From contig JBGTGT010000098.1 of the NCBI GenBank assembly GCA_041746575.1, positions 104,729-168,728 of the forward strand: DNA of 64,000 bases. The letters run 5' to 3'. The translations under genes were made by a program, and so were the position numbers. The notes beneath the pieces were generated by a model, which saw only the letters and a list, made by a program, of their open reading frames with translations, was not told the origin of the DNA and did no database searches. The stretch's first letter is position 1; each line of letters starts with the position of its first letter. Source of the stretch: Microcystaceae cyanobacterium (lineage in GTDB: Bacteria; Cyanobacteriota; Cyanobacteriia; Cyanobacteriales; Microcystaceae). Shown here piece after piece: positions 1 to 28,033 of the stretch.

Positions 1-387
1 GATAATGACTTTCCCTTCGTATTCTACCCACGCATGGGCTGACATTTTCCCTTTTGGATGTCGGGTAAACCCAATACAAAGGTCAGGTGAATAACCCCGT
101 TCTTCTAATAGCAATTGAGTCGCTAATGCACGTGCTAAACATCTAATTTTTCGTACATAGTGACTCGCAGTTCTCACTGTCCATAACACCCTATCTATCT
201 CCACAGAAGCTTGCTCTGCATCGTATAATTTAGGGTTAGACGGAAAGACTTTCGCTAAAAGAAAACGTAACCTTTGAAAAGGTAAAAACTTCAGTCCGAC
301 TCGAATACTTCCTAGTAAAATAAACGCCTTAATCAGCAACAATTTTTCCGAGAAAGTGAGTTGTAGAAACTTAAGTAGCCTTTTCAT
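1..387 (-). CDS. Lasso peptide biosynthesis B2-type (transglutaminase-like) leader peptidase; runs off the left edge
   Basis: Manual translation from ATG 387: MKRLLKFLQLTFSEKLLLIKAFILLG...IRCLARALATQLLL...CIGF...MSAHAWVEYEGKVII. The CL-x-RA and AHAWVE Cys/His motifs are typical of Transglut_core3/lasso B2. Not in the ORF track. Confidence 0.85.
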   Translation of the reverse strand, partial: MKRLLKFLQLTFSEKLLLIKAFILLGSIRVGLKFLPFQRLRFLLAKVFPSNPKLYDAEQASVEIDRVLWTVRTASHYVRKIRCLARALATQLLLEERGYSPDLCIGFTRHPKGKMSAHAWVEYEGKVII

Positions 388-410: not shown

Positions 411-481
411 CTTCTACTTATTACTCGGAAACAGTCACTGACTTTGTGACGCCTTCCGTTAAAGTTGTTACAAAACTCAAC
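411..481 (-). promoter_or_regulatory. Conserved upstream element, copy 1 (also at 27891-27961)
   Basis: 59/71 ungapped identity to 27891-27961; lies 23 nt upstream of the B2 ATG. Confidence 0.75.
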
Positions 482-589
482 AATTTATAGCCGACAGAAT
501 AACAAAACAACCCCTGCAAAAGACGTTGCTAAGTAGGGGAGGAACAAGCAATCATTAAAAATCAAAGAAAATACCGTCTTTTGCCACTG

Positions 590-17548: not shown

Positions 17549-19039
17549 CTATTTATTTAGGTTCGATTTTTGCCAAATTCCTATTAAACTAAAAATCCCA
17601 ATTATCAATAAGCCAAACGTCATAGAAGGTTCAGGAATTTTATAATCTTCAACTTCACCATGGGAAAGACAATCGGCTGAAGGGATAGGGCAATCTGGGG
17701 ATGAAAAGAATTCGCCTTGTGGGGTTATATCTAAGCTAAGGGGATCCCAAGTCAAACGAAAACGGTTATAGTATTTTCTGACGTCTCTTGAAATAGGATA
17801 ACGCTTTTTGAATAACCCCGGTGCCAGAAAAGTAATTGAAGGGTCATCAGGAATGGTACTCGGATTAAGCGTGAGTAAATCGTCAATCAACAACTCTTCA
17901 GGATGATCAAACATTTTATTTTCATTAAAATCTGTCCACGCACGCAGTTGATAAGGATGATCCCCTAACCGAGAAATATTAAAAATAACATCAATCCAAT
18001 GCTTACCAAAAATAACACCATCTTCATCGTCTAATGGGCGGGAAAAAACAAAAGGAGAAGGAATTAAATCATCTCCATTTGCGGGAATTGTTGGTCGACC
18101 ATTATGTTCTCCATCTTTAAACGTTCCTAACCGTTGAAACTCTCCTTCATAATAACGAGGTCCATTATTTTGTAATAGAGTGTCGTAAAAAAAATTGAGG
18201 TTAATAGGGCGATCAGGTGCATCGCCAAAATCCCTTTCCCAAACGGCTAATCCACTGGTAGCATCGCCAAAATCATCTACATCAACGATGCCAAAACTTA
18301 GGTCATAAATTCCGTCTTCTGTAATGTTAAGATTATAAATTCCTGAACTTTCTCGCACAAAAGGCATTTCAATCACTGGCGTAAATCCATCAATATTTCG
18401 TTCTCGAACACCTCCTGCTGTATTTGAATTAATAAATAGATTTAGGTCTTCGCTTTCATTAACACTGGTTAATCGGATGAAGTCATAAATTTCTTCTGTA
18501 TCTTCTTCTTCGTCGATAATTTTTTTCACCAGTAGAAAAGCGTAGTCACTTGCATCGATAAAATCAAGCGTATCAGGATTTAAAATATCACGTCGTTCAT
18601 CATTAGAATAAAATGTCCAGCCAAAATTATAGGTAAAACCTTGAGGAAAGAAAAATCGCTTTCTAGCCGCAGAGCCTTCAAACGCTTCTACAAAATTGTC
18701 AATATCTGGACTTAGAAAACCATCTGGAATTTTGAGTGCTGTTTCTAGGCTGAAAGCATCAATAGCCGGTTCTTCACCTGATAAATTATAAATATTACCG
18801 ATTTCGTTACCTAAATTACTATCCTCTTCTGCTTGTGCATTGGTTGATAAGAAAAGACTATTCCCTTCTGGGGTTAAGAATGAGTCGCCGAAGAAATCAA
18901 TATCTGAGGAAAGTGCAGGACGTTGATTTAATCTGATTTCTATACTAAGTCCTCCTAGTAAGATTATTAGCAATGTTATGAATTTTGACAAGTTATTAGA
19001 CTTTTTAAGATGCAACATAGTTAATTCTGGTGTTTTCAT
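17549..19039 (-). CDS. PEP-CTERM sorting-domain protein with GEVED domain
   Basis: DFGDAPD, DEDGV, AWTDFN, RFRL and GEVED, then IPEPS + hydrophobic helix + basic tail; signal-like N-terminus. Confidence 0.85.
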   Translation of the reverse strand: MKTPELTMLHLKKSNNLSKFITLLIILLGGLSIEIRLNQRPALSSDIDFFGDSFLTPEGNSLFLSTNAQAEEDSNLGNEIGNIYNLSGEEPAIDAFSLETALKIPDGFLSPDIDNFVEAFEGSAARKRFFFPQGFTYNFGWTFYSNDERRDILNPDTLDFIDASDYAFLLVKKIIDEEEDTEEIYDFIRLTSVNESEDLNLFINSNTAGGVRERNIDGFTPVIEMPFVRESSGIYNLNITEDGIYDLSFGIVDVDDFGDATSGLAVWERDFGDAPDRPINLNFFYDTLLQNNGPRYYEGEFQRLGTFKDGEHNGRPTIPANGDDLIPSPFVFSRPLDDEDGVIFGKHWIDVIFNISRLGDHPYQLRAWTDFNENKMFDHPEELLIDDLLTLNPSTIPDDPSITFLAPGLFKKRYPISRDVRKYYNRFRLTWDPLSLDITPQGEFFSSPDCPIPSADCLSHGEVEDYKIPEPSMTFGLLIIGIFSLIGIWQKSNLNK

Positions 19040-19178
19040 AATACGTTGTAGGCTGATGGATGTTAGAATGATAATCTCAAGAGTCTGATTTGGTTAATAA
19101 TTTTCCCAGAAGTTTGATGGTTTCAAGCTCTCATCAGAAAACTTTGTACGACTTGACTTGGCGCAAATCTGTACCAGC

Positions 19179-22100
19179 TCAAATAATAAAGTTCTCAGCC
19201 TGATCTAAGGCATTAATAGTATGATTTTCGAAGTAGATAAAAGGTCTGGCTCTGCGAATTCCCAGTTCGCCATCTTCGTCGTATAGAGCAATCGTTGTAT
19301 CACCTCGTTGTCCCCAACTCAAATAGCCTTGGTCGATGACATCTTGGTAACCTTTAAATGCTAGATCAAGATTCTCGAAGAATTCTGTTAAGACAATGTG
19401 ATCAATTCCGACTTCAAAATCTGTAATAATGTCATCTCTATCTCGAAGCTCAAGGTAAACAAATTGATCTAATCCTGCACCACCCGTTAGTATATCTCTG
19501 GCATCAGAGCCGATTAAAATATCGTTCCCCTCACCCCCAACTAAAACGTCTCGTCCATAACCTCCAATAAGCGTATCATGGCCTTCTGCACCTTCAAGGG
19601 TATCGTAACCTAACCCTCCATCCATCCAATCATTACCTGCTTCACCATAAAGCAAGTCGTTAAGATTATCGCCGAATAGGAAATCATCATCATTCCCTCC
19701 GTGAAGCGTGTCATTATCAAAGCCACCAGAAAGACTATCTATGCCGTCTCCACCTGATAAATAATCATTACCATCGCCTCCACTGAGAGTATCGTCTCCT
19801 AAACCACTGATAAGCGTATCATTGCCATTTTCTCCCCTTAAAACATCATTGCCGTCGTCTGAGGTGAGAAAGTCATCCCCATCTCCTCCACTGAGAGTAT
19901 CGTCTCCTAAACCACTAATAAGCGTATCATCGCCATTTTCTCCCGTTAAAACATCATTTCCGTCGTCTGAGGTGAGAGAGTCATCCCCATCTCCTCCCCT
20001 TAAAAAATCATCGCCTAAACCACCTATAAGGGTGTCGTTACCGGCTTCTCCTTCTAAAGTATCGTCTCCTCCATTTCCTTGTAGAAAATCATTGCCTTCT
20101 CTGCCTAACAAAAAACGACTTTGATCGTCATCAATGAAAGTATCATTAAATTGCGTTCCTTCTAATCCTTCGACTGATGTAGGAATAATATCACCAATTG
20201 CATCCCCTGTTGCTTCTCCTGTGACTAAATTGAGGAGAACACCAGTAGGAGAATTCCGATAACTAACGGTATCAATTCCTTTACCACCGTCATAATCATC
20301 GCCTCCTGCACTACCCATCAAGAAATCGTCACCGTTATCACCCGAAAGAGTATCATTATTGTTTCCTCCGACTAACGTATCATTGCCATTTCCCCCGGCT
20401 AAATCGACGGGGACTAAAACGTCTCTATCGACTAGGGTGATATTATCATCTCCTTCACCAGCGTCTCCAATAATTTTTTTAAGGCTTTTATAATCTTGAA
20501 CGACACCAAAAGAAGAAACTAAAATCGTTTCATTGGTAGCCGTAAAAGCTTCGTGCTGAATGACATAGACTTCGGCAACATCTCCTCTATTATCATTGCG
20601 GAAATGAGCATTTGCTCCAATATTTAGCCGTAAAATACCATCGTTAGCAAAGTTTTTAAATCCTAGATTGGTTGCCAAGAAAGGTGACTGACTATCTTTT
20701 TGATTTTCACCTCTAAAGTCAACTGTAAAATTGAGTAATTCTTCTTCGAGGATTCTGTCTTCAATAACGACAAATTGTTTTCTTGCTATTGCATATCCAA
20801 TTGAAGCATCTAGGATGAAATTAATCCCTCCTTGAAGATCGAACAGAGAAAGGGGATTCGCTGTAAATCCATCAATCAACTCATCTTTTCTGACTTTTCC
20901 TTTACTATTAGGAAGTGTATTAGGATCGATCAAGTCTAAACCTATACTGCCTTCAACACCACCAGCAAGTTCAGCATAAAAACTCAAAATATTGGCAGGA
21001 AAACCAATTCCACCTCTAGCAAACACTTCCAGTCCAAAAATTGCTTCGATAAGGGGATTTTCTCCTTCATCTTTGATATAAAAACCATTGAAAATATCGT
21101 CTATATCCTCGGTGTCTAAAAACTGAGTGAGTCCATAAGTGTCATAGCCAAACTCAATGTCACTCGTCGCTTTAAAAGTCCCTCTCATCCCCGCTTCAGC
21201 GAAAACAGGGCCAGACGAAGCAACAAAAAATAAGACTTCTCCTATATCTTTGTTGATCTGTAACTTTGGTAATTTATAGTTAAATAGTTCAACATTTTTA
21301 CCTAGTAATAAGCCAAAAGCTGTTTGTGGATTTTCGATAATTGGAAATTGTATTCCCAGTTTTTGAGAGGTATTTAGACTCTTTTTCTCATCAGTTCCAT
21401 TAGGCAGTTGTTGCTCAAGAGAAGCAGATGTTTTAGTAATAAAAGGAGTAACAAGGCTTAAATTAAAATTAGAACTTCGGGGATCATTTCCAGTTAAGTT
21501 AAAACTACCTAAATTAATGACTAAATCGCTATCAAGAGGAATACTATTAACAAAATTGACAAAATTTAATATTTGTTCGAGGGGAGTAATATCAATACCC
21601 AGTAAATCCTTAAGTATGAATTCTCCGATCAAAGAATCACTCGCTTCAATGGTTCGCGTTAAAAACTTAGCAATCGGTTCAATCGGTTTAGTAATTTCTT
21701 GAATATTTTTAAAAATGGGATCGGCAAAATTGTTAAAAAATGTTCCTAAATCAAGTTGGATCTCATCAAAGCTAATAGAAGGAATATTCCCATTTTCGCT
21801 TTCTCCATCAAATTGCCAATCTAAGGTAAAATCTGACATGATAGAAGGCAAAACTTTTGAATCACCAAAGCTAGTCGTAAGTCCTAAACTTAAATCAACA
21901 TCGGCATTAAAATCGGGAGTAAAATTGGGGGTTTCATTTAGTCTTAATTGATGATCGCCATCTTCTACATCAATCGATAAACTAATTTGAACTTCTGGTG
22001 CAGGATTTTTGTCTTCTATATCAAGTTGTAAAAAGCCTAATTTACCCCCTCCTTGTAAATCAACCCCTGCATTCAAGCGAAGATTCAACTCTGGATCATT

Positions 22101-25100
22101 AAAATAATTTGTATCAAAGTAAAATTGAGGTGAATCAGTATTTGTTTGATCAATCCCAAATGCTAAATTAAGCTCATATCCTACCCCAACAGTTGCATTT
22201 TGAGCCTCAACGCTAAATCCAAGATTCGGTAAACCTAACTCTGTGTCAAAACTTGTAGAAGCATTAAAATTACCTTCGAGTTTAGCAGCGATAAAATAAC
22301 CATCACTATTCAGTGTCAATTCAATATCTTGTTGATTGATATCTCCATCGTTATTAGTATCTAGTAAAGTAAAATAGCCATCATTACTTTCTGTTAACAA
22401 CTCAAATAAAGCTTGCTGAATAGCTGAAGTAGTTGAACTAGAAAGATTGATTAATTTATTATTAATGCCATTTTTGAGGTCTGTAATAAATTGAATAACA
22501 TCATCACTAAAATCGCCCAGTAGAGGAATTTTATCGCTTAGTTTTTCATTAACTATACCTCTTAATTGTTCCAATATATAATCTAATCCTAGGCTGAGTA
22601 ACTCTTTGGTATTGAAACTGCTAGCAAACTCTGTTAGGTTATTAAAGTTTTGACCTTTGTAATTTATATTAGTTGTACTAGGTTGATTTAGATTAATCTG
22701 ACTTAAAGCGGTGTTAGGAAATACATAGCCTAAATCTACATCGAAATCATTACTACCATTAATTATCCCTTGTAGATTTAACGCCGCACTGCCTGATAAA
22801 GTGCCATTTACTGTTAGCGATTCTCCGACTCGCCATTTGTTATCATTACCGTCACTAATATCAAGGGTAAATAAACTATCTAAATTACTACCATTATCAG
22901 TAATCCCGATGTTAATAATCTCAAAGAGTTGAGCATTAGCACTTAAACCCTGTAAATTGGCATTTAATCCTAAAATCAATTCAGAATTTGAAGAAGTATC
23001 GAGATAGAATTGAGGAGTTTGATTAGCATCTAAATCTATGCCAAATCCCCAATCAAAAGCATAATTTAAAGTAACATTAGCGTCTCCATTAATATTTAAT
23101 CCTAAACTGGATGTTCCTAATGAACTCCCCAAAGGAAGAATAAAGGTTTCATTACCATCTAAATTTATATCTAAAATATATCCATCTTGGGTTAACAAGA
23201 TATCGTTAATGTTAGTAAAATCAAGAATTTGAGCTTGTAAATTATCAATGAAATCTAAAACAATATCATCTAAATTTCTCAAAAGGGGAATTTTATTAGT
23301 TAAGGCGGTGGATAAACTATTTCTCAAATTAGCAAAAAAGAAGTTTAATCCTTCTGTCAATAAAGATTCCGCATCAAAATTGTTAACTAATTCAACAGTA
23401 AAAGTTTCAGGATTAAATAAATCAGTTGCTTGTAAAGCAATATTGCCAATCTCAAGACTAAGACTGGCATTAGTATCATTGATAGATATTGGTAAATTAC
23501 CTTGCAAACTGCCTGTTGCTGTAGATGTTAATAAAGTAGTGATAGGAGTATCTGTTATCTCCCTCAAAGTAAACTTACCATCTTGATTAGGATCATTAAA
23601 ATTAATATTAATTCCCGCATCAATGAGATCGATTGCACCCTTAACGATTCCCGCATTAATAATATTTCCTACATTAACACTCAAATTTAGATTATCTGCA
23701 TCTACATCAACTTGAAAAATCGCTCGATCTGCTCTAATATAAACTCTCTCACTTGAATCTATTTCTGGTGATAAATCAAAACCAACCGTAAATTTAGGTA
23801 CCTGAGCATCATTTGCCGAAAGAAAGCCAAAGTTCGTCAAAATATCAAGAGTAGCAGAAGCGTCAAAATTGATATTTAAGTCGTTGCCTTGCTCTCCTAA
23901 ACTAAAAGCAATAGTTTCAGTAATAATCTCTTGTAAATCTAGATCAAATTCGATAACAGGTTCTAAATTATTGGTACTGTTTCCGAATTGATTTTCGATA
24001 ACTTCAAAGAGTTCTCCAATCGTAGGTGTGGCATCATTGTTAAAATAGTTTTGAAAGGGAGTTCTTAATCTTTGATCTATTTGATGAGGTAAATTAATTA
24101 TTTCCGCTAATGTTTGATTGATAATTGGTAAATTAACTGTAAAAGGTGCTAAATCATCTAAATCATCTGCAAATTCAACTAAATCATTTAAACCATCAAG
24201 AATTAAGTTTTTTAAAGAATTTGGAATCGGAATAATAATAGGAGTATCAGGAATATTGGGACCAAATTCATTGGCATGAGAAGGTAGAGGATTAGCCGAT
24301 AAATTTGAGTTACTATTCGGATCATCGGAAGTTGTATCTCCTAAAGCAGGAAATTGCAGTCCATTATTTTGCCAATCAGTAAACAATTCCCGATAAACAG
24401 AACGCAAAATCTCACTTTCCCAGAGGGGAAAATTGCCTGTACCCGAATTATATTTTATATCTATCCAATTCGATCCTATTTCACGATAATTATCGTCAGA
24501 ATCAGCAATTAACGTTTCAGAATCTCTGGTCAATTTAATTTGTTGTACGCTACCATCTGACAAAGATAAAACTCGAATAGGACCAGCAACAACATTGCCG
24601 TCTGCTACATTTTCTAATTCGATTCTTAAATGACCGCTACTAATCGAAAATTCTCCTAGATTACCAAAAGATAATCCTCCATCTTCTGCATCGGCTTCAA
24701 AAATCCTTTGATCTTTACTAACTGTTGCAATTGGAGTCGCACCATCATAAATTTTATATTTAGCATTACTAGCAGGGGTTAAATTTTGATCGGGTAAAGC
24801 AGAATTTTCTAAATTATCTACTAATTGGGTAACATTCAATAGCCAAGTTGTCTGAATACGATAATTGCCCGGCGTTAAATTGGCTTCCCAAACTGCAAAA
24901 TCTCCCCCGTCATTACTGGTATTTACTCTGAATAAAGCTTTTATGGTCGTTAAACTATCCTGTCTCCAAGAATGATCGCTATCAATCGAAAGTAGCCAGG
25001 GTTTTGAATCGGCAATTCCGGGTAAAGTCGTCGTTAAAATATTGCCACCATGATTCCCATTTAAATTAAGCAGAGAGGCATCATAAATAACAGCATTACC

Positions 25101-27830
25101 ATTGTTTTGAGCAGTAAGAACATTTGAAAAAAGTTGACTCAGTTGATTACTACCTATGCTTTCCCCGTCAAAAGGAGTCTCTTGTAATAAAAGCAACTTA
25201 GATAAAATTACACTATTTTGATAGGCCGAAAACGCTCCTTTATCAAAATTAATTTCATCTTTTAATGCACCTGTAGGGTTTTCATGGAAATTAATTGTTA
25301 TACCCCCGACAGAAACTTTTAAATCTTCAGTAATGTCATCTGGAGCAGGATAGTAAATATCATCATCATTTCCAGCAATTCCAAGATATTGATTCAGCAG
25401 TTCTCGATCACCTGATTTAAAAATGGGTATTTCAACATCACCAATTTCGATACTAGCCAAATCCAGTTTAGCGTTTGTTTGAATAAGAAAATCAAAAAGC
25501 TCAAAATCAATGCCAAATACTTCTTCAATTTGATCTTTAATAAAATCGAAAACGAACTGTTCTAAAGTTTCAATTCCTACTAATAAAGGATTAATCGCTA
25601 ATTCTAAAGGCTGAATTACAAATTCATCTAAAGCTGAACCAAAAGTCTGCATAATAGTCCGTATCATTGCTAGTTCTCTTGGCACTCCTAACATAGGCAA
25701 AAGATACTTATTAATAAAAGAGTCAGTCGTTAGCCCATCTCCATTAAGATCATCCAATTCTTCAATTAAAACATCAAAAACACCAACATTATTTTCTTTC
25801 TCAATCCCAATCAAGTTATATTCTCCTAACAATCCTCTTTCTTTATTCTGTAAATCTCGACGGCTTTGGGGATCATAAAAAGCTCTCGTAAATGCTAATC
25901 CAAATTCTGACCAATGGCGTAATCCTTGATCTATATTATTAATCCAAGTTTGTAGATAACCTGTATAAAGATTCTCCAGTTCTTCGATTGTTGGCGTTTC
26001 TCCTTGAATAAATTTATCAATCAGATCAGCGACTAAGAAATTAAAATCAATTGTTTCTTTCCCTTCAACTTGCTTACTGAGTAATTCTCTTAATTTGAAA
26101 AAAGTATCAATAGCAATTCCTCTTTTTCCCTGTACGATTAACTGCTCATCGCCATTTGCTATTTGATCCCCACTCTGTAAATTTTCGACGACAATAATTT
26201 TTTGTTCAGTAACTTCTTTGACGGTATAGTCGCCATTATTTTGATTAAATCCTGATGCGCCAAAACGCATTCCTTGAACTATTCCGTCTTCGAGAAAATT
26301 TCCATTTTTACGATTAAAAGAATTGTCAGTAGTGTCAATTGTTAAGAATGTCTTTGCCGTATAGGGAATTTTGACAAATAATCTTTCATCTCCAGTAGAA
26401 TTGTCATCTCCTGCTAATAGAGATTCTTTAACCGTAATGCGACCCGTTGTTATCTCAGTAATCGTATAAACTCCATTATTACGATTAAAACCATTAGTCG
26501 TAATTTTTTGTCCCACTACAAAACCATCAAAATTGCCACCATCAGTTCGAATAAATTGACGCTCATCTGAATTAACTTTAATAGAAGCAACAATTCCTGT
26601 ATCTTCCAAATGAGTCGGATCAAATAAAACAGGACGAATTAAACTTTCGTATATGAAACGATTCGGCGCAGCATAAGAAATAGCTGGCGTGCTATCATCA
26701 CTCACATCGTCAGCGATACCATCATCATTTATATAAATAGGTTGACGATCAGGATTATTATCAAAGTTAATAGTGGCATCTTGAATATACTCTTCCACTA
26801 ATAAGTGACGCAGTGCATTCGCCACTTCACGTTTATCTTCACTAAGACTACTGGCAACATCACCAAAAGACGGAAAAACCCCTTCAGCAAATTCATTAAC
26901 TAAATTGTGCGCCCAAATATCTCCTGCGGCGTGAGTTAAAAAGCCATAAGTCCAAGCTAAGATTTGTGACTTTTCTATATTACTAAAACTCGGATCGTTT
27001 TGGGCTTGCCAAGCCATATCTAGCACTCTTGTTAACCATGTACCGGTTTCTTCAGGATGAATCACGCCAGCACCCATTAATATATCGGGAAAACCATCTG
27101 GTCCTACTGTTCCAGCATAATAATAATCAGGATAATTTCGTAGTGCCTGTGCAATTTTGGGATGTATATTATAATTTTGTCCGTTAATGTTTAACGCTCC
27201 ATCATCTAATAAATCTGAATGCACATCTTTAGCAATTTCTACATGAGTGTAGGGTTTAAAAGCAACGTCAGAGAAGGGGTCGTGATCATAATTATCTGCA
27301 TTCTTTTGCTTATATTGATGTTCAAATCCTAATAAGTGTTTAGCTTCGTGGGCAATAACTTCTACTAAGGTTTCTACACCGTCAGAAAAATTAATTTGAT
27401 CGTTAAATATGTTGTCAATAAAAACAAAAGCATTATCGCTATGATTTTGATTATCAAGATCAATTTTTTCTGCTAATCCATAATAATATCCATATTCATT
27501 AAAACTTAAATCAAAGTTACCCAAATAAATGGTCGAATATTTAATATCGCTTGGTTTTTCTAAGACAAAAACAGTCTTTAAGTCTTGGTGAATTTCGTTT
27601 AAAGAATTAACGATTTTGCTGAAAATATCGTTTGCATCTTGAGTGACATGAGTGGGCAGTGTAAACCCATCGCTCTTAATACCTTCAATGCGAATATGAC
27701 CTTGATAAGTTATATTTTCGACAGGATTAATCTCTAAATAAAAGACTTGATTAGAATGATCCTCCTGCGCCCCATCTGATAGGGAGATTTGAGCGTTAAT
27801 GGGCGGTGAGTTGTCTAAGTTTTTGGACAT
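19179..27830 (-). CDS. Giant RTX-type secreted protein: metzincin motif, Zn-dependent PLC-like domain, Golvesin-like module, Ca-binding repeats, T1SS C-terminal domain
   Basis: HEAKHLLGFEH; FKPYTH...GTVGPDGFPD...GFLTHAAGDIWAH; many GG-x-G-x-D nonapeptides; C-terminal DIITDFEVGIDHI. ATG 27830 has an AGGA upstream (the ORF track starts at TTG 27848). Confidence 0.85.
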   Translation of the reverse strand: MSKNLDNSPPINAQISLSDGAQEDHSNQVFYLEINPVENITYQGHIRIEGIKSDGFTLPTHVTQDANDIFSKIVNSLNEIHQDLKTVFVLEKPSDIKYSTIYLGNFDLSFNEYGYYYGLAEKIDLDNQNHSDNAFVFIDNIFNDQINFSDGVETLVEVIAHEAKHLLGFEHQYKQKNADNYDHDPFSDVAFKPYTHVEIAKDVHSDLLDDGALNINGQNYNIHPKIAQALRNYPDYYYAGTVGPDGFPDILMGAGVIHPEETGTWLTRVLDMAWQAQNDPSFSNIEKSQILAWTYGFLTHAAGDIWAHNLVNEFAEGVFPSFGDVASSLSEDKREVANALRHLLVEEYIQDATINFDNNPDRQPIYINDDGIADDVSDDSTPAISYAAPNRFIYESLIRPVLFDPTHLEDTGIVASIKVNSDERQFIRTDGGNFDGFVVGQKITTNGFNRNNGVYTITEITTGRITVKESLLAGDDNSTGDERLFVKIPYTAKTFLTIDTTDNSFNRKNGNFLEDGIVQGMRFGASGFNQNNGDYTVKEVTEQKIIVVENLQSGDQIANGDEQLIVQGKRGIAIDTFFKLRELLSKQVEGKETIDFNFLVADLIDKFIQGETPTIEELENLYTGYLQTWINNIDQGLRHWSEFGLAFTRAFYDPQSRRDLQNKERGLLGEYNLIGIEKENNVGVFDVLIEELDDLNGDGLTTDSFINKYLLPMLGVPRELAMIRTIMQTFGSALDEFVIQPLELAINPLLVGIETLEQFVFDFIKDQIEEVFGIDFELFDFLIQTNAKLDLASIEIGDVEIPIFKSGDRELLNQYLGIAGNDDDIYYPAPDDITEDLKVSVGGITINFHENPTGALKDEINFDKGAFSAYQNSVILSKLLLLQETPFDGESIGSNQLSQLFSNVLTAQNNGNAVIYDASLLNLNGNHGGNILTTTLPGIADSKPWLLSIDSDHSWRQDSLTTIKALFRVNTSNDGGDFAVWEANLTPGNYRIQTTWLLNVTQLVDNLENSALPDQNLTPASNAKYKIYDGATPIATVSKDQRIFEADAEDGGLSFGNLGEFSISSGHLRIELENVADGNVVAGPIRVLSLSDGSVQQIKLTRDSETLIADSDDNYREIGSNWIDIKYNSGTGNFPLWESEILRSVYRELFTDWQNNGLQFPALGDTTSDDPNSNSNLSANPLPSHANEFGPNIPDTPIIIPIPNSLKNLILDGLNDLVEFADDLDDLAPFTVNLPIINQTLAEIINLPHQIDQRLRTPFQNYFNNDATPTIGELFEVIENQFGNSTNNLEPVIEFDLDLQEIITETIAFSLGEQGNDLNINFDASATLDILTNFGFLSANDAQVPKFTVGFDLSPEIDSSERVYIRADRAIFQVDVDADNLNLSVNVGNIINAGIVKGAIDLIDAGININFNDPNQDGKFTLREITDTPITTLLTSTATGSLQGNLPISINDTNASLSLEIGNIALQATDLFNPETFTVELVNNFDAESLLTEGLNFFFANLRNSLSTALTNKIPLLRNLDDIVLDFIDNLQAQILDFTNINDILLTQDGYILDINLDGNETFILPLGSSLGTSSLGLNINGDANVTLNYAFDWGFGIDLDANQTPQFYLDTSSNSELILGLNANLQGLSANAQLFEIINIGITDNGSNLDSLFTLDISDGNDNKWRVGESLTVNGTLSGSAALNLQGIINGSNDFDVDLGYVFPNTALSQINLNQPSTTNINYKGQNFNNLTEFASSFNTKELLSLGLDYILEQLRGIVNEKLSDKIPLLGDFSDDVIQFITDLKNGINNKLINLSSSTTSAIQQALFELLTESNDGYFTLLDTNNDGDINQQDIELTLNSDGYFIAAKLEGNFNASTSFDTELGLPNLGFSVEAQNATVGVGYELNLAFGIDQTNTDSPQFYFDTNYFNDPELNLRLNAGVDLQGGGKLGFLQLDIEDKNPAPEVQISLSIDVEDGDHQLRLNETPNFTPDFNADVDLSLGLTTSFGDSKVLPSIMSDFTLDWQFDGESENGNIPSISFDEIQLDLGTFFNNFADPIFKNIQEITKPIEPIAKFLTRTIEASDSLIGEFILKDLLGIDITPLEQILNFVNFVNSIPLDSDLVINLGSFNLTGNDPRSSNFNLSLVTPFITKTSASLEQQLPNGTDEKKSLNTSQKLGIQFPIIENPQTAFGLLLGKNVELFNYKLPKLQINKDIGEVLFFVASSGPVFAEAGMRGTFKATSDIEFGYDTYGLTQFLDTEDIDDIFNGFYIKDEGENPLIEAIFGLEVFARGGIGFPANILSFYAELAGGVEGSIGLDLIDPNTLPNSKGKVRKDELIDGFTANPLSLFDLQGGINFILDASIGYAIARKQFVVIEDRILEEELLNFTVDFRGENQKDSQSPFLATNLGFKNFANDGILRLNIGANAHFRNDNRGDVAEVYVIQHEAFTATNETILVSSFGVVQDYKSLKKIIGDAGEGDDNITLVDRDVLVPVDLAGGNGNDTLVGGNNNDTLSGDNGDDFLMGSAGGDDYDGGKGIDTVSYRNSPTGVLLNLVTGEATGDAIGDIIPTSVEGLEGTQFNDTFIDDDQSRFLLGREGNDFLQGNGGDDTLEGEAGNDTLIGGLGDDFLRGGDGDDSLTSDDGNDVLTGENGDDTLISGLGDDTLSGGDGDDFLTSDDGNDVLRGENGNDTLISGLGDDTLSGGDGNDYLSGGDGIDSLSGGFDNDTLHGGNDDDFLFGDNLNDLLYGEAGNDWMDGGLGYDTLEGAEGHDTLIGGYGRDVLVGGEGNDILIGSDARDILTGGAGLDQFVYLELRDRDDIITDFEVGIDHIVLTEFFENLDLAFKGYQDVIDQGYLSWGQRGDTTIALYDEDGELGIRRARPFIYFENHTINALDQAENFII
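19778..19996. repeat. 108-bp near-perfect tandem duplication in the RTX repeat region
   Basis: CACTGAGAGTATCGTCTCCTAAACCACT recurs at 19781 and 19889; the unit equals 4 nonapeptides. Confidence 0.85.
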
Positions 27831-27890: not shown

Positions 27891-27961
27891 CTTCTACTCA
27901 TTACTCGGAAAATGCAATTGACTTTGTGACATCTCACCTTAAAATTGTTACAAAACTCAAC
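27891..27961 (-). promoter_or_regulatory. Conserved upstream element, copy 2
   Basis: 59/71 identity with 411-481, same orientation relative to the downstream gene. Confidence 0.75.
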
Positions 27962-28033
27962 CGTTTTGCTAGTTGAATCGGAAAAAGTGAGAGAAAGCAG
28001 GATAAACTTGAGGCTTGAGTGTTCAAAATGACA

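Follow-up and report, generated by a model that had tools for sequence, protein, structure and literature searches.

Gene neighbourhoods in which an EACC2-caspase system stands together with a sigma factor of the ECF type and with a DUF1822 protein have been catalogued computationally by Kaur, Iyer, Burroughs and Aravind in 2021 (PMC8195603), who proposed that the sigma factor regulates many genes; the accessible part of that paper gives neither a promoter nor target genes for these neighbourhoods. As far as the accessible text of the respective report goes, sigma-HetZ of Anabaena PCC 7120 is a divergent ECF sigma factor that was missed by standard annotation, has a two-box promoter and is encoded together with its anti-sigma factor (PMC13342950). 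The RpaB site HLR1, with the consensus (G/T)TTACA(T/A)(T/A)-NN-(G/T)TTACA(T/A)(T/A), activates when centred between -66 and -45 (Riediger 2019, PMC6525291; PMC11633204), and known RpaB targets are on in low light and go off once cells are moved to high light. In Synechocystis PCC 6803, SigF promoters are characterized by TAGGC (-32) and GGTAA (-12) (PMC2532724). For PEP-CTERM genes, Haft (2006; PMC1569441) described an upstream motif in Proteobacteria only and, in the part of the paper on which we draw, expected more regulators still to be found.

The window (that is, the whole stretch of 64,000 nucleotides analysed here) contains two copies of a 71-base element which an earlier note on this DNA had described as a module shared by two unrelated genes. 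We consider it likely that this element is a promoter, with two of its three conserved boxes (B and C) serving as -35 and -10 for an ECF-like sigma factor encoded on another contig (C133), and with box A serving as an HLR1-like activator site for RpaB or a paralogue. Re-alignment confirmed that positions 411-481 and 27891-27961 are identical at 59 of 71 positions without gaps, and that identity drops to background in the 60-nt flanks of both copies, so that the similarity is confined to the block. Both are minus-strand copies, each standing ahead of a gene of that strand, and the box sequences are as previously given: on the coding strand each copy reads box A GTTGAGTTTTGTAACAA, box B GTCACAAAG, box C TTCCGAGTAAT and then TAG. 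The features of the window are as follows.

1..387, minus strand: B2-type peptidase gene (PF13471), with its ATG at 387, continuing past the window edge
411..481, minus strand: copy 1 of the predicted three-box promoter element, 59/71 to copy 2, matrix score 75.7
414..416, minus strand: conserved TAG of copy 1, start region (A or G) as predicted from spacing, 27 nt 5' of the B2 ATG
420..428, minus strand: box C of copy 1 (CCGAGTAAT), predicted -10; conservation 0.95 in nine copies, YGA(G/T) at the equivalent place in relatives
442..450, minus strand: box B of copy 1 (GTCACAAAG), predicted -35; conservation 0.99 in nine copies, variable with the sigma clade in relatives
467..484, minus strand: box A of copy 1, an 18-bp direct repeat with 2 mismatches in 16 to the reversed HLR1 consensus; putative RpaB site
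17549..19039, minus strand: gene of a PEP-CTERM-tailed protein (IPEPS plus hydrophobic tail), separated by 140 nt from the giant gene upstream
19141..19149, minus strand: 9-mer GTACAAAGT, not a family member
19179..27830, minus strand: gene of a giant protein that carries RTX calcium-binding repeats at its C-terminus (PF00353, E 1.5e-43) and has about 2880 aa if counted from the likely ATG
27891..27961, minus strand: copy 2 of the predicted three-box promoter element, matrix score 72.0
27894..27896, minus strand: conserved TAG of copy 2, predicted start region, about 64 nt 5' of the ATG
27900..27908, minus strand: box C of copy 2 (CCGAGTAAT), predicted -10
27922..27930, minus strand: box B of copy 2 (GTCACAAAG), predicted -35
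27947..27964, minus strand: box A of copy 2, with 4 mismatches to reversed HLR1 in the far half-site and none in the near one

A partial site had also been proposed at 19141-19149, upstream of the PEP-CTERM gene. The 9-mer is indeed present, but it occurs 18 times in the genome, and at this place it has neither an upstream box nor a -10 box at the proper distance and gives no match to the three-box matrix; it is thus not a copy. Since the matrix scan likewise found no copy upstream of the PEP-CTERM gene at 17549..19039, this gene probably has no promoter of its own but is transcribed together with the giant gene from copy 2. Near the start of the window, immediately upstream of copy 1, lie genes for a COP23 protein and a trypsin-like protease (669-2253); three tandem copies of a GCAAGGTTT(G/A)CGC unit, spaced by 17 bp, are found 5' of the start of the trypsin-like gene (617-667), and short repeats resembling this unit are present elsewhere in the genome.

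An ungapped scan combined with a three-box matrix, the latter seeded on eight of the copies, yielded nine copies in the 4.2-Mb genome with scores from 55.6 to 76.6. In the reversed genome a single site scored 16.0, and the locally shuffled genome had no site above 16. A set of nine short copies that resemble each other and are spread over several contigs might be taken for a miniature mobile repeat (MITE) or a structured RNA leader. All nine are, however, co-directional with the downstream gene and place the TAG, that is, the predicted start, at promoter distance (27-76 nt before the likely gene start), their ends are not inverted repeats (3-8 matching positions of 15), and a search of five loci, which together hold eight of the nine copies, gave no Rfam match. 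Moreover, conservation is box-like: majority-base values are 0.91, 0.99 and 0.95 for boxes A, B and C, 0.71 and 0.62 for the two spacers, and 0.48-0.49 for the flanks. The contrast between boxes (0.91-0.99) and spacers (0.62-0.71) points to recent selection. We thus regard a mobile repeat or RNA leader as extremely improbable, and the preference expressed earlier for an activator site plus promoter over a mobile repeat is borne out by box conservation, common orientation and the lack of terminal inverted repeats.

The nine copies precede the following genes.

C133:102012: PEP-CTERM gene, split by a stop
C133:102985: PEP-CTERM gene
C133:104108: PEP-CTERM gene
C81:705: PEP-CTERM gene
gene of 117 aa whose product ends in a PEP-like tail; a sugar-transferase-like gene comes next
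C133:44913: gene of a signal-peptide protein
two RTX-repeat genes: the giant gene of the window and a small one on C88
B2 gene heading the B2/NHLP/LanM operon (ninth target)

The targets thus comprise six genes for signal-peptide proteins, four of them of the PEP-CTERM kind, together with two RTX-repeat genes and one B2/NHLP/LanM operon. Four of the nine copies are clustered on contig C133, where they adjoin the sigma-like gene and a DUF1822 gene, and two C133 copies have spacer sequence in common. One copy overlaps a TTG-extended DUF1822 frame, but lies about 95 nt 5' of the ATG that aligns with homologues. The PEP-CTERM gene behind the first C133 copy (L027:14013-14755) is broken by the stop into pieces of 125 and 104 aa, reflecting either a mutation or an assembly error. 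A scan of the C133 cluster for sigma-70 promoters and terminators gave results at chance level only.

The B2 gene behind copy 1 had been called a lasso B2 gene. It heads a run of genes for B2, a PEP-CTERM protein (127 aa), an NHLP precursor, LanM, an ABC transporter and a nucleotidyltransferase (NF033537, TIGR03793, TIGR03897, PF14907). Because the genome gives no PF05402 match for PqqD, and because only one weak match of 56 positions to PF00733, on another contig, was obtained for an Asn-synthase-like lasso cyclase, this operon, with NHLP and LanM behind B2, is not a lasso cluster. It may be described as a hybrid RiPP operon without PqqD, extending over window positions 1-387 and L028:2047-10122 (C98:97046-105121); its NHLP precursor has 230 aa and two NHLP leader matches, and its nucleotidyltransferase is of the NTP_transf_5 type. 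NHLP-like genes are likewise found behind B2 at loci L220 and L229. None of 29 B2 homologues elsewhere, many of them operon-internal genes, has an element within 1.5 kb, and this holds also for the two that are followed by NHLP-like and LanM-like genes. As judged from sequence, regulon membership is hence local and would have been recruited in this lineage. The giant protein encoded behind copy 2 is presumably exported by type I secretion, as suggested by its RTX repeats. A zinc-phospholipase-C-like stretch near its N-terminus is weak (PF00882, E 1.6e-4, below cut-off), and most of its length matches no family. It also contains a stretch HEAKHLLGFEH, which we take to be a metzincin-like zinc motif.

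The earlier proposal of a shared cell-surface regulon stands in a narrower form. Genes for surface, secreted and PEP-CTERM proteins are indeed found behind the copies, but only about 6 of 45 PEP-CTERM-like ORFs of this genome (regex count) lie in element-headed units, and neither of the two exosortase genes has a copy. The evidence supports a putative regulon that consists of a small set of surface and secreted protein genes, with PEP-CTERM genes among them.

Which sigma factor might read this promoter is suggested by the surroundings of the C133 copies. The genes beside four of them encode proteins of the TPS-domain, PEP-CTERM and TPR-CHAT types, a fragment related to HetZ, a sigma-like protein (about 200 aa) and a protein with DUF1822. 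The sigma-like gene (C133, 100.7-101.3 kb) is single-copy in this genome and its ORF is intact. The model of the protein (pLDDT 80.4) has two helical domains, which correspond to regions 2 and 4 only, with a linker of low confidence between them. Nearly all top Foldseek matches are sigma factors (sigma-E, SigK, region 2 of SigC; TM 0.80 by target length), with a best E of 0.012 and no match reaching E 0.001, while a profile of the family has ECF SigK as its best PDB match (E 9e-4). The protein itself scores below every sigma HMM cut-off (TIGR02937, 26.7 vs 42.9 bits; PF04542, 15.8 vs 24). Weak but consistent indications thus suggest, by domain make-up, a divergent ECF (group 4) sigma factor. 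Among 301 genomes of the order, 182 gave a profile match to this sigma family, the figure for the source genome's own family being 2 of 17; further members occur in both same-genus genomes and on 14 plasmids. The two closest relatives are 61% identical and have the helix 'VNLRKFW'; a metagenome scan for their context returned six short, weak matches only.

In 40 loci of relatives, most sigma-DUF1822 pairs adjoin CHASE2, DUF928 or CHAT genes. At locus L062, an 83-aa protein gene (L062:10709-10960) and, behind it, the gene of a giant unannotated protein (L062:11024-17542) are divergent from the sigma gene; similar 83-aa proteins, which give no NCBIfam match and often have such a giant protein behind them, are likewise encoded divergently from the sigma gene at L066, L088, L092 and L098, at several loci behind an element. 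In the present genome, a 122-aa N-terminal HetZ-related-2 fragment (L027:11919-12287) is divergent from the sigma gene. Two more such fragments are found on C54 and C66 and a full-length gene on C28, and related genomes repeatedly contain short fragments of this kind.

The exact motif of this genome was found in none of 40 relatives, and a one-mismatch motif gave at most two matches in any of 400 other genomes of the phylum, with no enrichment; 20 loci examined of the 40 such loci listed outside this genome are without box A and often lie inside ORFs. A GTDB scan, from which records near the source genome are possibly absent, returned six non-cyanobacterial single matches, taken as chance. The three-box layout, in contrast to the exact motif, recurs in the 40 homologue loci, where it precedes the sigma gene, divergent giant-protein genes and PEP-CTERM genes. 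When a matrix of boxes A and C was applied (score at least 15, within 450 nt upstream), 51 of the 108 homologous sigma genes were found to have an element (24 of the 58 that stood outside training), compared with 14 of 2869 ORFs of this genome, seven of the 14 being true copies. Control genes rarely reached the score (1/41 DUF1822, 0/36 CHASE2-labelled and 0/18 CHAT genes), and at the same loci it was reached by 5/5 giant-protein genes and 2/7 PEP genes. The sigma gene of the present genome has no copy upstream (score -8.0), unlike about half of its relatives. A generic pattern matches 67 of 301 genomes (reversed control, 3 of 301); the share is 57 of 181 where the sigma family is present and 9 of 119 where it is absent. 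The pattern was built from loci of some of the tested genomes, and kin are not independent, so that we attach no weight to the p-value; nine motif-positive genomes are thus without a sigma profile match, and 124 of the 181 sigma-positive genomes without a strict motif match.

The boxes behave differently among relatives. The first box is unchanged, and the second reads GCATAAAA, CGTAAAA, GCAGAAAA or GTGTAAAA; since this middle box varies with the sigma clade, it is likely to be a -35 and not half of a direct repeat. GTAACAA and GTCACAA do stand 21 nt apart in both window copies, as had been observed (20 nt in one other copy of this genome), but this apparent direct repeat has then come about by coincidence in this lineage. 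In the set of 56 sigma genes that have their own element, the recognition helix and box B pair as follows: (i) SD/ST helices with (G/C)CGTAAA (10/10), (ii) HN/HS with GTGTAA (3/3), (iii) SR with GCAGAAA or GCACAAA (5/5), and (iv) SS with GCATAAA, GCGTAAA or GCAGAAA. These pairs follow clades, so that they represent few independent events, and a counter-case is provided by G479, whose sigma factor has R at the helix position and yet goes with CGTAAAA boxes. The sigma factor of the present genome ('VSLRQFW') sits on a long branch and goes with the most divergent boxes. Its nearest placed relative is that of G572 ('VTLRQFY', 'LRQF'), with which it groups with a support of 94 in a quick tree in which this pairing was flagged as a long-branch join; beside its sigma gene, G572 carries elements of the GTAACAAA...GAGTAA type: four elements there show GTAAC(A/G)..., and in most of them the -10 is GAGT. 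An 'LRQF' sigma factor was predicted for, and not found in, G583, G559, G506 and G594 (g207), despite their GTAACAAA-type elements. An identical 62-bp element of this type occurs in three genomes of one genus (L124, L125, L126), where no matching sigma factor was found; it is possibly a relic on a mobile piece. If the pairing is true, the contigs of P0002 and P0003 are expected to carry GTCACAAA-type elements.

The boxes can also be compared with those of sigma factors that are present throughout the family. GAGTAA resembles the GGTAA box of SigF, YGAG resembles the TGnA -10 of sigma-HetZ (PMC13342950), and SigF-like, ECF-like and full-length HetZ-related-2 genes are all present in this genome, so that SigF, SigG or a HetZ-related-2 sigma factor might be considered as readers of the element. 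However, neither TAGGC at -32 nor TCCGGA at -35 is present, HetZ-related-2 matches are found in 13 of 24 genomes of the family while the element is found in none of the 24, and the element precedes DUF1822-linked sigma genes and varies with them; a family-wide sigma factor is hence very unlikely. In particular, the earlier suggestion of a SigF-type -10 is not supported: the SigF pair TAGGC(-32)/GGTAA(-12) is absent, the boxes being GTCACAAAG and YGAGTAAT, and the element tracks another sigma family. Other described promoters were compared as well. The sigma-HetZ (DIF1) promoter, with TCCGGA, a 16-17 nt spacing and TGnA, does not correspond to the element (PMC13342950), and the -24 GG/-12 GC motif, which PrsR/sigma-54 PEP-CTERM promoters combine with an enhancer some 60 nt upstream, is absent from the nine-copy consensus. 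The ECF41 promoter reads TGTCACA-n16-CGTC, and its -35 is similar to that of the element, the -10 and the spacing being different. We are fairly confident that the boxes constitute a promoter read by the sigma-like factor encoded on C133.

Box A may be the site of a second regulator. In relatives its consensus is WWTGTAAA-GT-TTTGTAAM, the reverse complement of the RpaB site, and its centre lies at -59.5 to -60.5 from the A of the TAG (about -61 from the predicted start in copy 1), within the range of -66 to -45 if the predicted start is correct. An HLR1 with at most three mismatches was found in 27 of 43 core promoters picked without regard to box A (15 of 28 held out), compared with 11 of 2743 background windows, and 35 of 51 sigma-upstream elements of relatives, in the selection of which box A was partly used, have at most two mismatches to the HLR1 consensus. 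At five further loci, all from one genus (L173, L174, L178, L179, L189), an HLR1-like box lies 10-11 bp nearer to the -35, and this shift by one turn fits a bound protein. The gene rpaB is present in the genome (NF045944 above cut-off).

The nine local copies fit less well, with 2-5 mismatches in 16 to reversed HLR1, the near half being exact in seven of nine and the far half drifted. It is thus conceivable that the same sigma-dependent promoter is combined with a box A that is read by another OmpR-family or otherwise different regulator, or by RNA polymerase as an upstream element. The local copies have a common drifted far half-site (TTGA/TTAA for TAAA), the spacer is mostly GT and thus more fixed than the 'two random nucleotides' of the consensus, and the near half is almost palindromic (TTGTWACAA). 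On the other hand, relatives fit HLR1 also when picked without box A, a GT spacer is likewise seen in other HLR1-like sites of this genome, including one before sigD, and the one-turn shift accords with a bound protein, so that we consider this alternative possible and rather unlikely. Binding of RpaB in this genome is, in view of the drifted far half-site, about an even bet, and for RpaB or a paralogue as the protein bound to box A we see an evenly balanced case, perhaps marginally in its favour. Sites of two further regulators were compared with box A: neither the LexA site TTTTG(A/T)TNAC (PMC4759255) nor the NtcA site GTA-N8-TAC fits its sequence.

DUF1822 is the candidate partner of the sigma factor. 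For the full-length pair of a relative (G569), folded in place of this genome's own pair, the predicted complex scores 0.88 versus 0.10 for the best control, with runs sharing at least 97% of contacts and a partner pLDDT of 84; among solved pairs, 116 of 157 reach this level, and among mismatched pairs 2 of 215, figures that are approximate with the present alignments. The predicted interface involves DUF1822 residues 8-155 and covers a region-2 helix and the recognition helix of the sigma factor, and DUF1822 is thus predicted to bind sigma as an anti-sigma factor would. In the present genome the DUF1822 gene (L027:13325-13786) is inverted relative to its relatives, stands back-to-back with the first element copy and is cut down to the predicted sigma-binding domain: the protein is shortened to 153 aa and keeps all 60 interface positions (17 identical). 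The remodelled cassette contains the sigma factor and the N-domain of DUF1822, and an EACC2-caspase-CHASE2 receptor was not found in the 134-contig assembly, which a relative's receptor matches only C-terminally, from residue 348. A cassette without receptor, a shortened DUF1822, a stop-split target gene and a spacer common to two C133 copies, as in tandem duplicates, might also indicate a relic, i.e. promoters that spread by duplication along with their genes while the circuit is dead in this genome. Yet the sigma ORF is intact, the boxes are far better conserved than the spacers (0.91-0.99 vs 0.62-0.71), and DUF1822 retains every predicted sigma-binding position, all of which makes a relic improbable.

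Our preferred reading, a promoter for the C133 sigma-like factor with an RpaB-type input, can be phrased as a mechanism. HetF of Anabaena PCC 7120 is reportedly a protease that cuts PatU3. By analogy with HetF-PatU3, DUF1822 would keep the sigma factor inactive via its N-terminal domain, as the predicted structure suggests, until a caspase-like CHAT protease releases it, for which the adjacent TPR-CHAT protein is a candidate. The free sigma factor would then recognise boxes B and C, with transcription presumably starting at the TAG, and RpaB bound near -61 would be the second input, acting as an activator. The output would be PEP-CTERM and RTX surface proteins as well as the lanthipeptide operon. 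It is tempting to go one step further and to propose, tentatively and at somewhat less than even odds, that this is a widespread and mobile family of ECF-like sigma factors whose promoters with RpaB sites are AND gates, requiring both sigma freed from DUF1822 and the low-light state of NblS-RpaB; the -35 would have diverged with the recognition helix while the box read by the host regulator stayed fixed, and in the present genome the gate would drive a PEP-CTERM/RTX/lanthipeptide programme.

To our knowledge, an ECF-type promoter with the site of a global activator at a fixed position is unusual. If the AND-gate reading is true, it provides a first candidate for the PEP-CTERM regulators that the 2006 study missed outside Proteobacteria, and thus a partial answer, for a minority of genes only, to its question of how PEP-CTERM genes are controlled in cyanobacteria. 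Biofilm-type surface proteins would be linked to the redox and light state, and a widespread cassette would gain a concrete promoter, a target list and a second input. The natural, clade-specific pairs of sigma factor and -35 might also serve as a resource for studies of promoter specificity and for orthogonal cyanobacterial expression tools. A literature search whose scope stopped short of supplements and subscription papers found no description of the cassette's promoter, of the HLR1 reading or of the sigma/-35 pairing, and a predicted motif for this sigma group may already be in print, e.g. in supplements to ECF classifications. Within that scope, the HLR1 reading and the sigma/-35 pairing appear to be new; the cassette of sigma, DUF1822 and caspase genes was already known, as a prediction.

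When set beside the known systems, the element is, like SigF promoters, a putative alternative-sigma promoter with a G..TAA-like -10 and a link to cell-surface genes (PMC2532724), but it does not match TAGGC/GGTAA and its distribution follows another sigma family. The PrsK/PrsR sigma-54 promoters likewise combine an activator site with an alternative-sigma promoter before a subset of PEP-CTERM genes (Haft 2006, PMC1569441); their -24/-12 GG/GC motif is absent here, and the present element covers only about 6 of 45 PEP-CTERM-like genes. With the EACC2-caspase system (PMC8195603) the locus has in common the set of sigma, DUF1822 and caspase-like (CHAT) genes, and it differs in that no receptor was found and in that DUF1822 is inverted and shortened. 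The system of HetF, PatU3 and sigma-HetZ provides the working model for the sigma-DUF1822-CHAT mechanism. In the element, GTCACA-17-YGAG is followed after about 12 nt by the predicted start, a register similar to the TCCGGA-16/17-TGnA of sigma-HetZ (PMC13342950). Sigma-HetZ is larger, has three insertions and reads TCCGGA-N16/17-TGnA, whereas the C133 sigma factor has about 200 aa and would read GTCACA-N17-YGAG. Finally, HLR1/RpaB promoters have, like box A, a direct repeat within the activation window of -66 to -45 (PMC6525291). The known RpaB targets are photosynthesis and stress genes, with no dedicated ECF-like sigma factor mentioned in the accessible part of that paper (PMC6525291), whereas here the HLR1-like site is always reversed, is fixed to the core promoter of an ECF-like sigma factor, and stands before genes for surface and secreted proteins.
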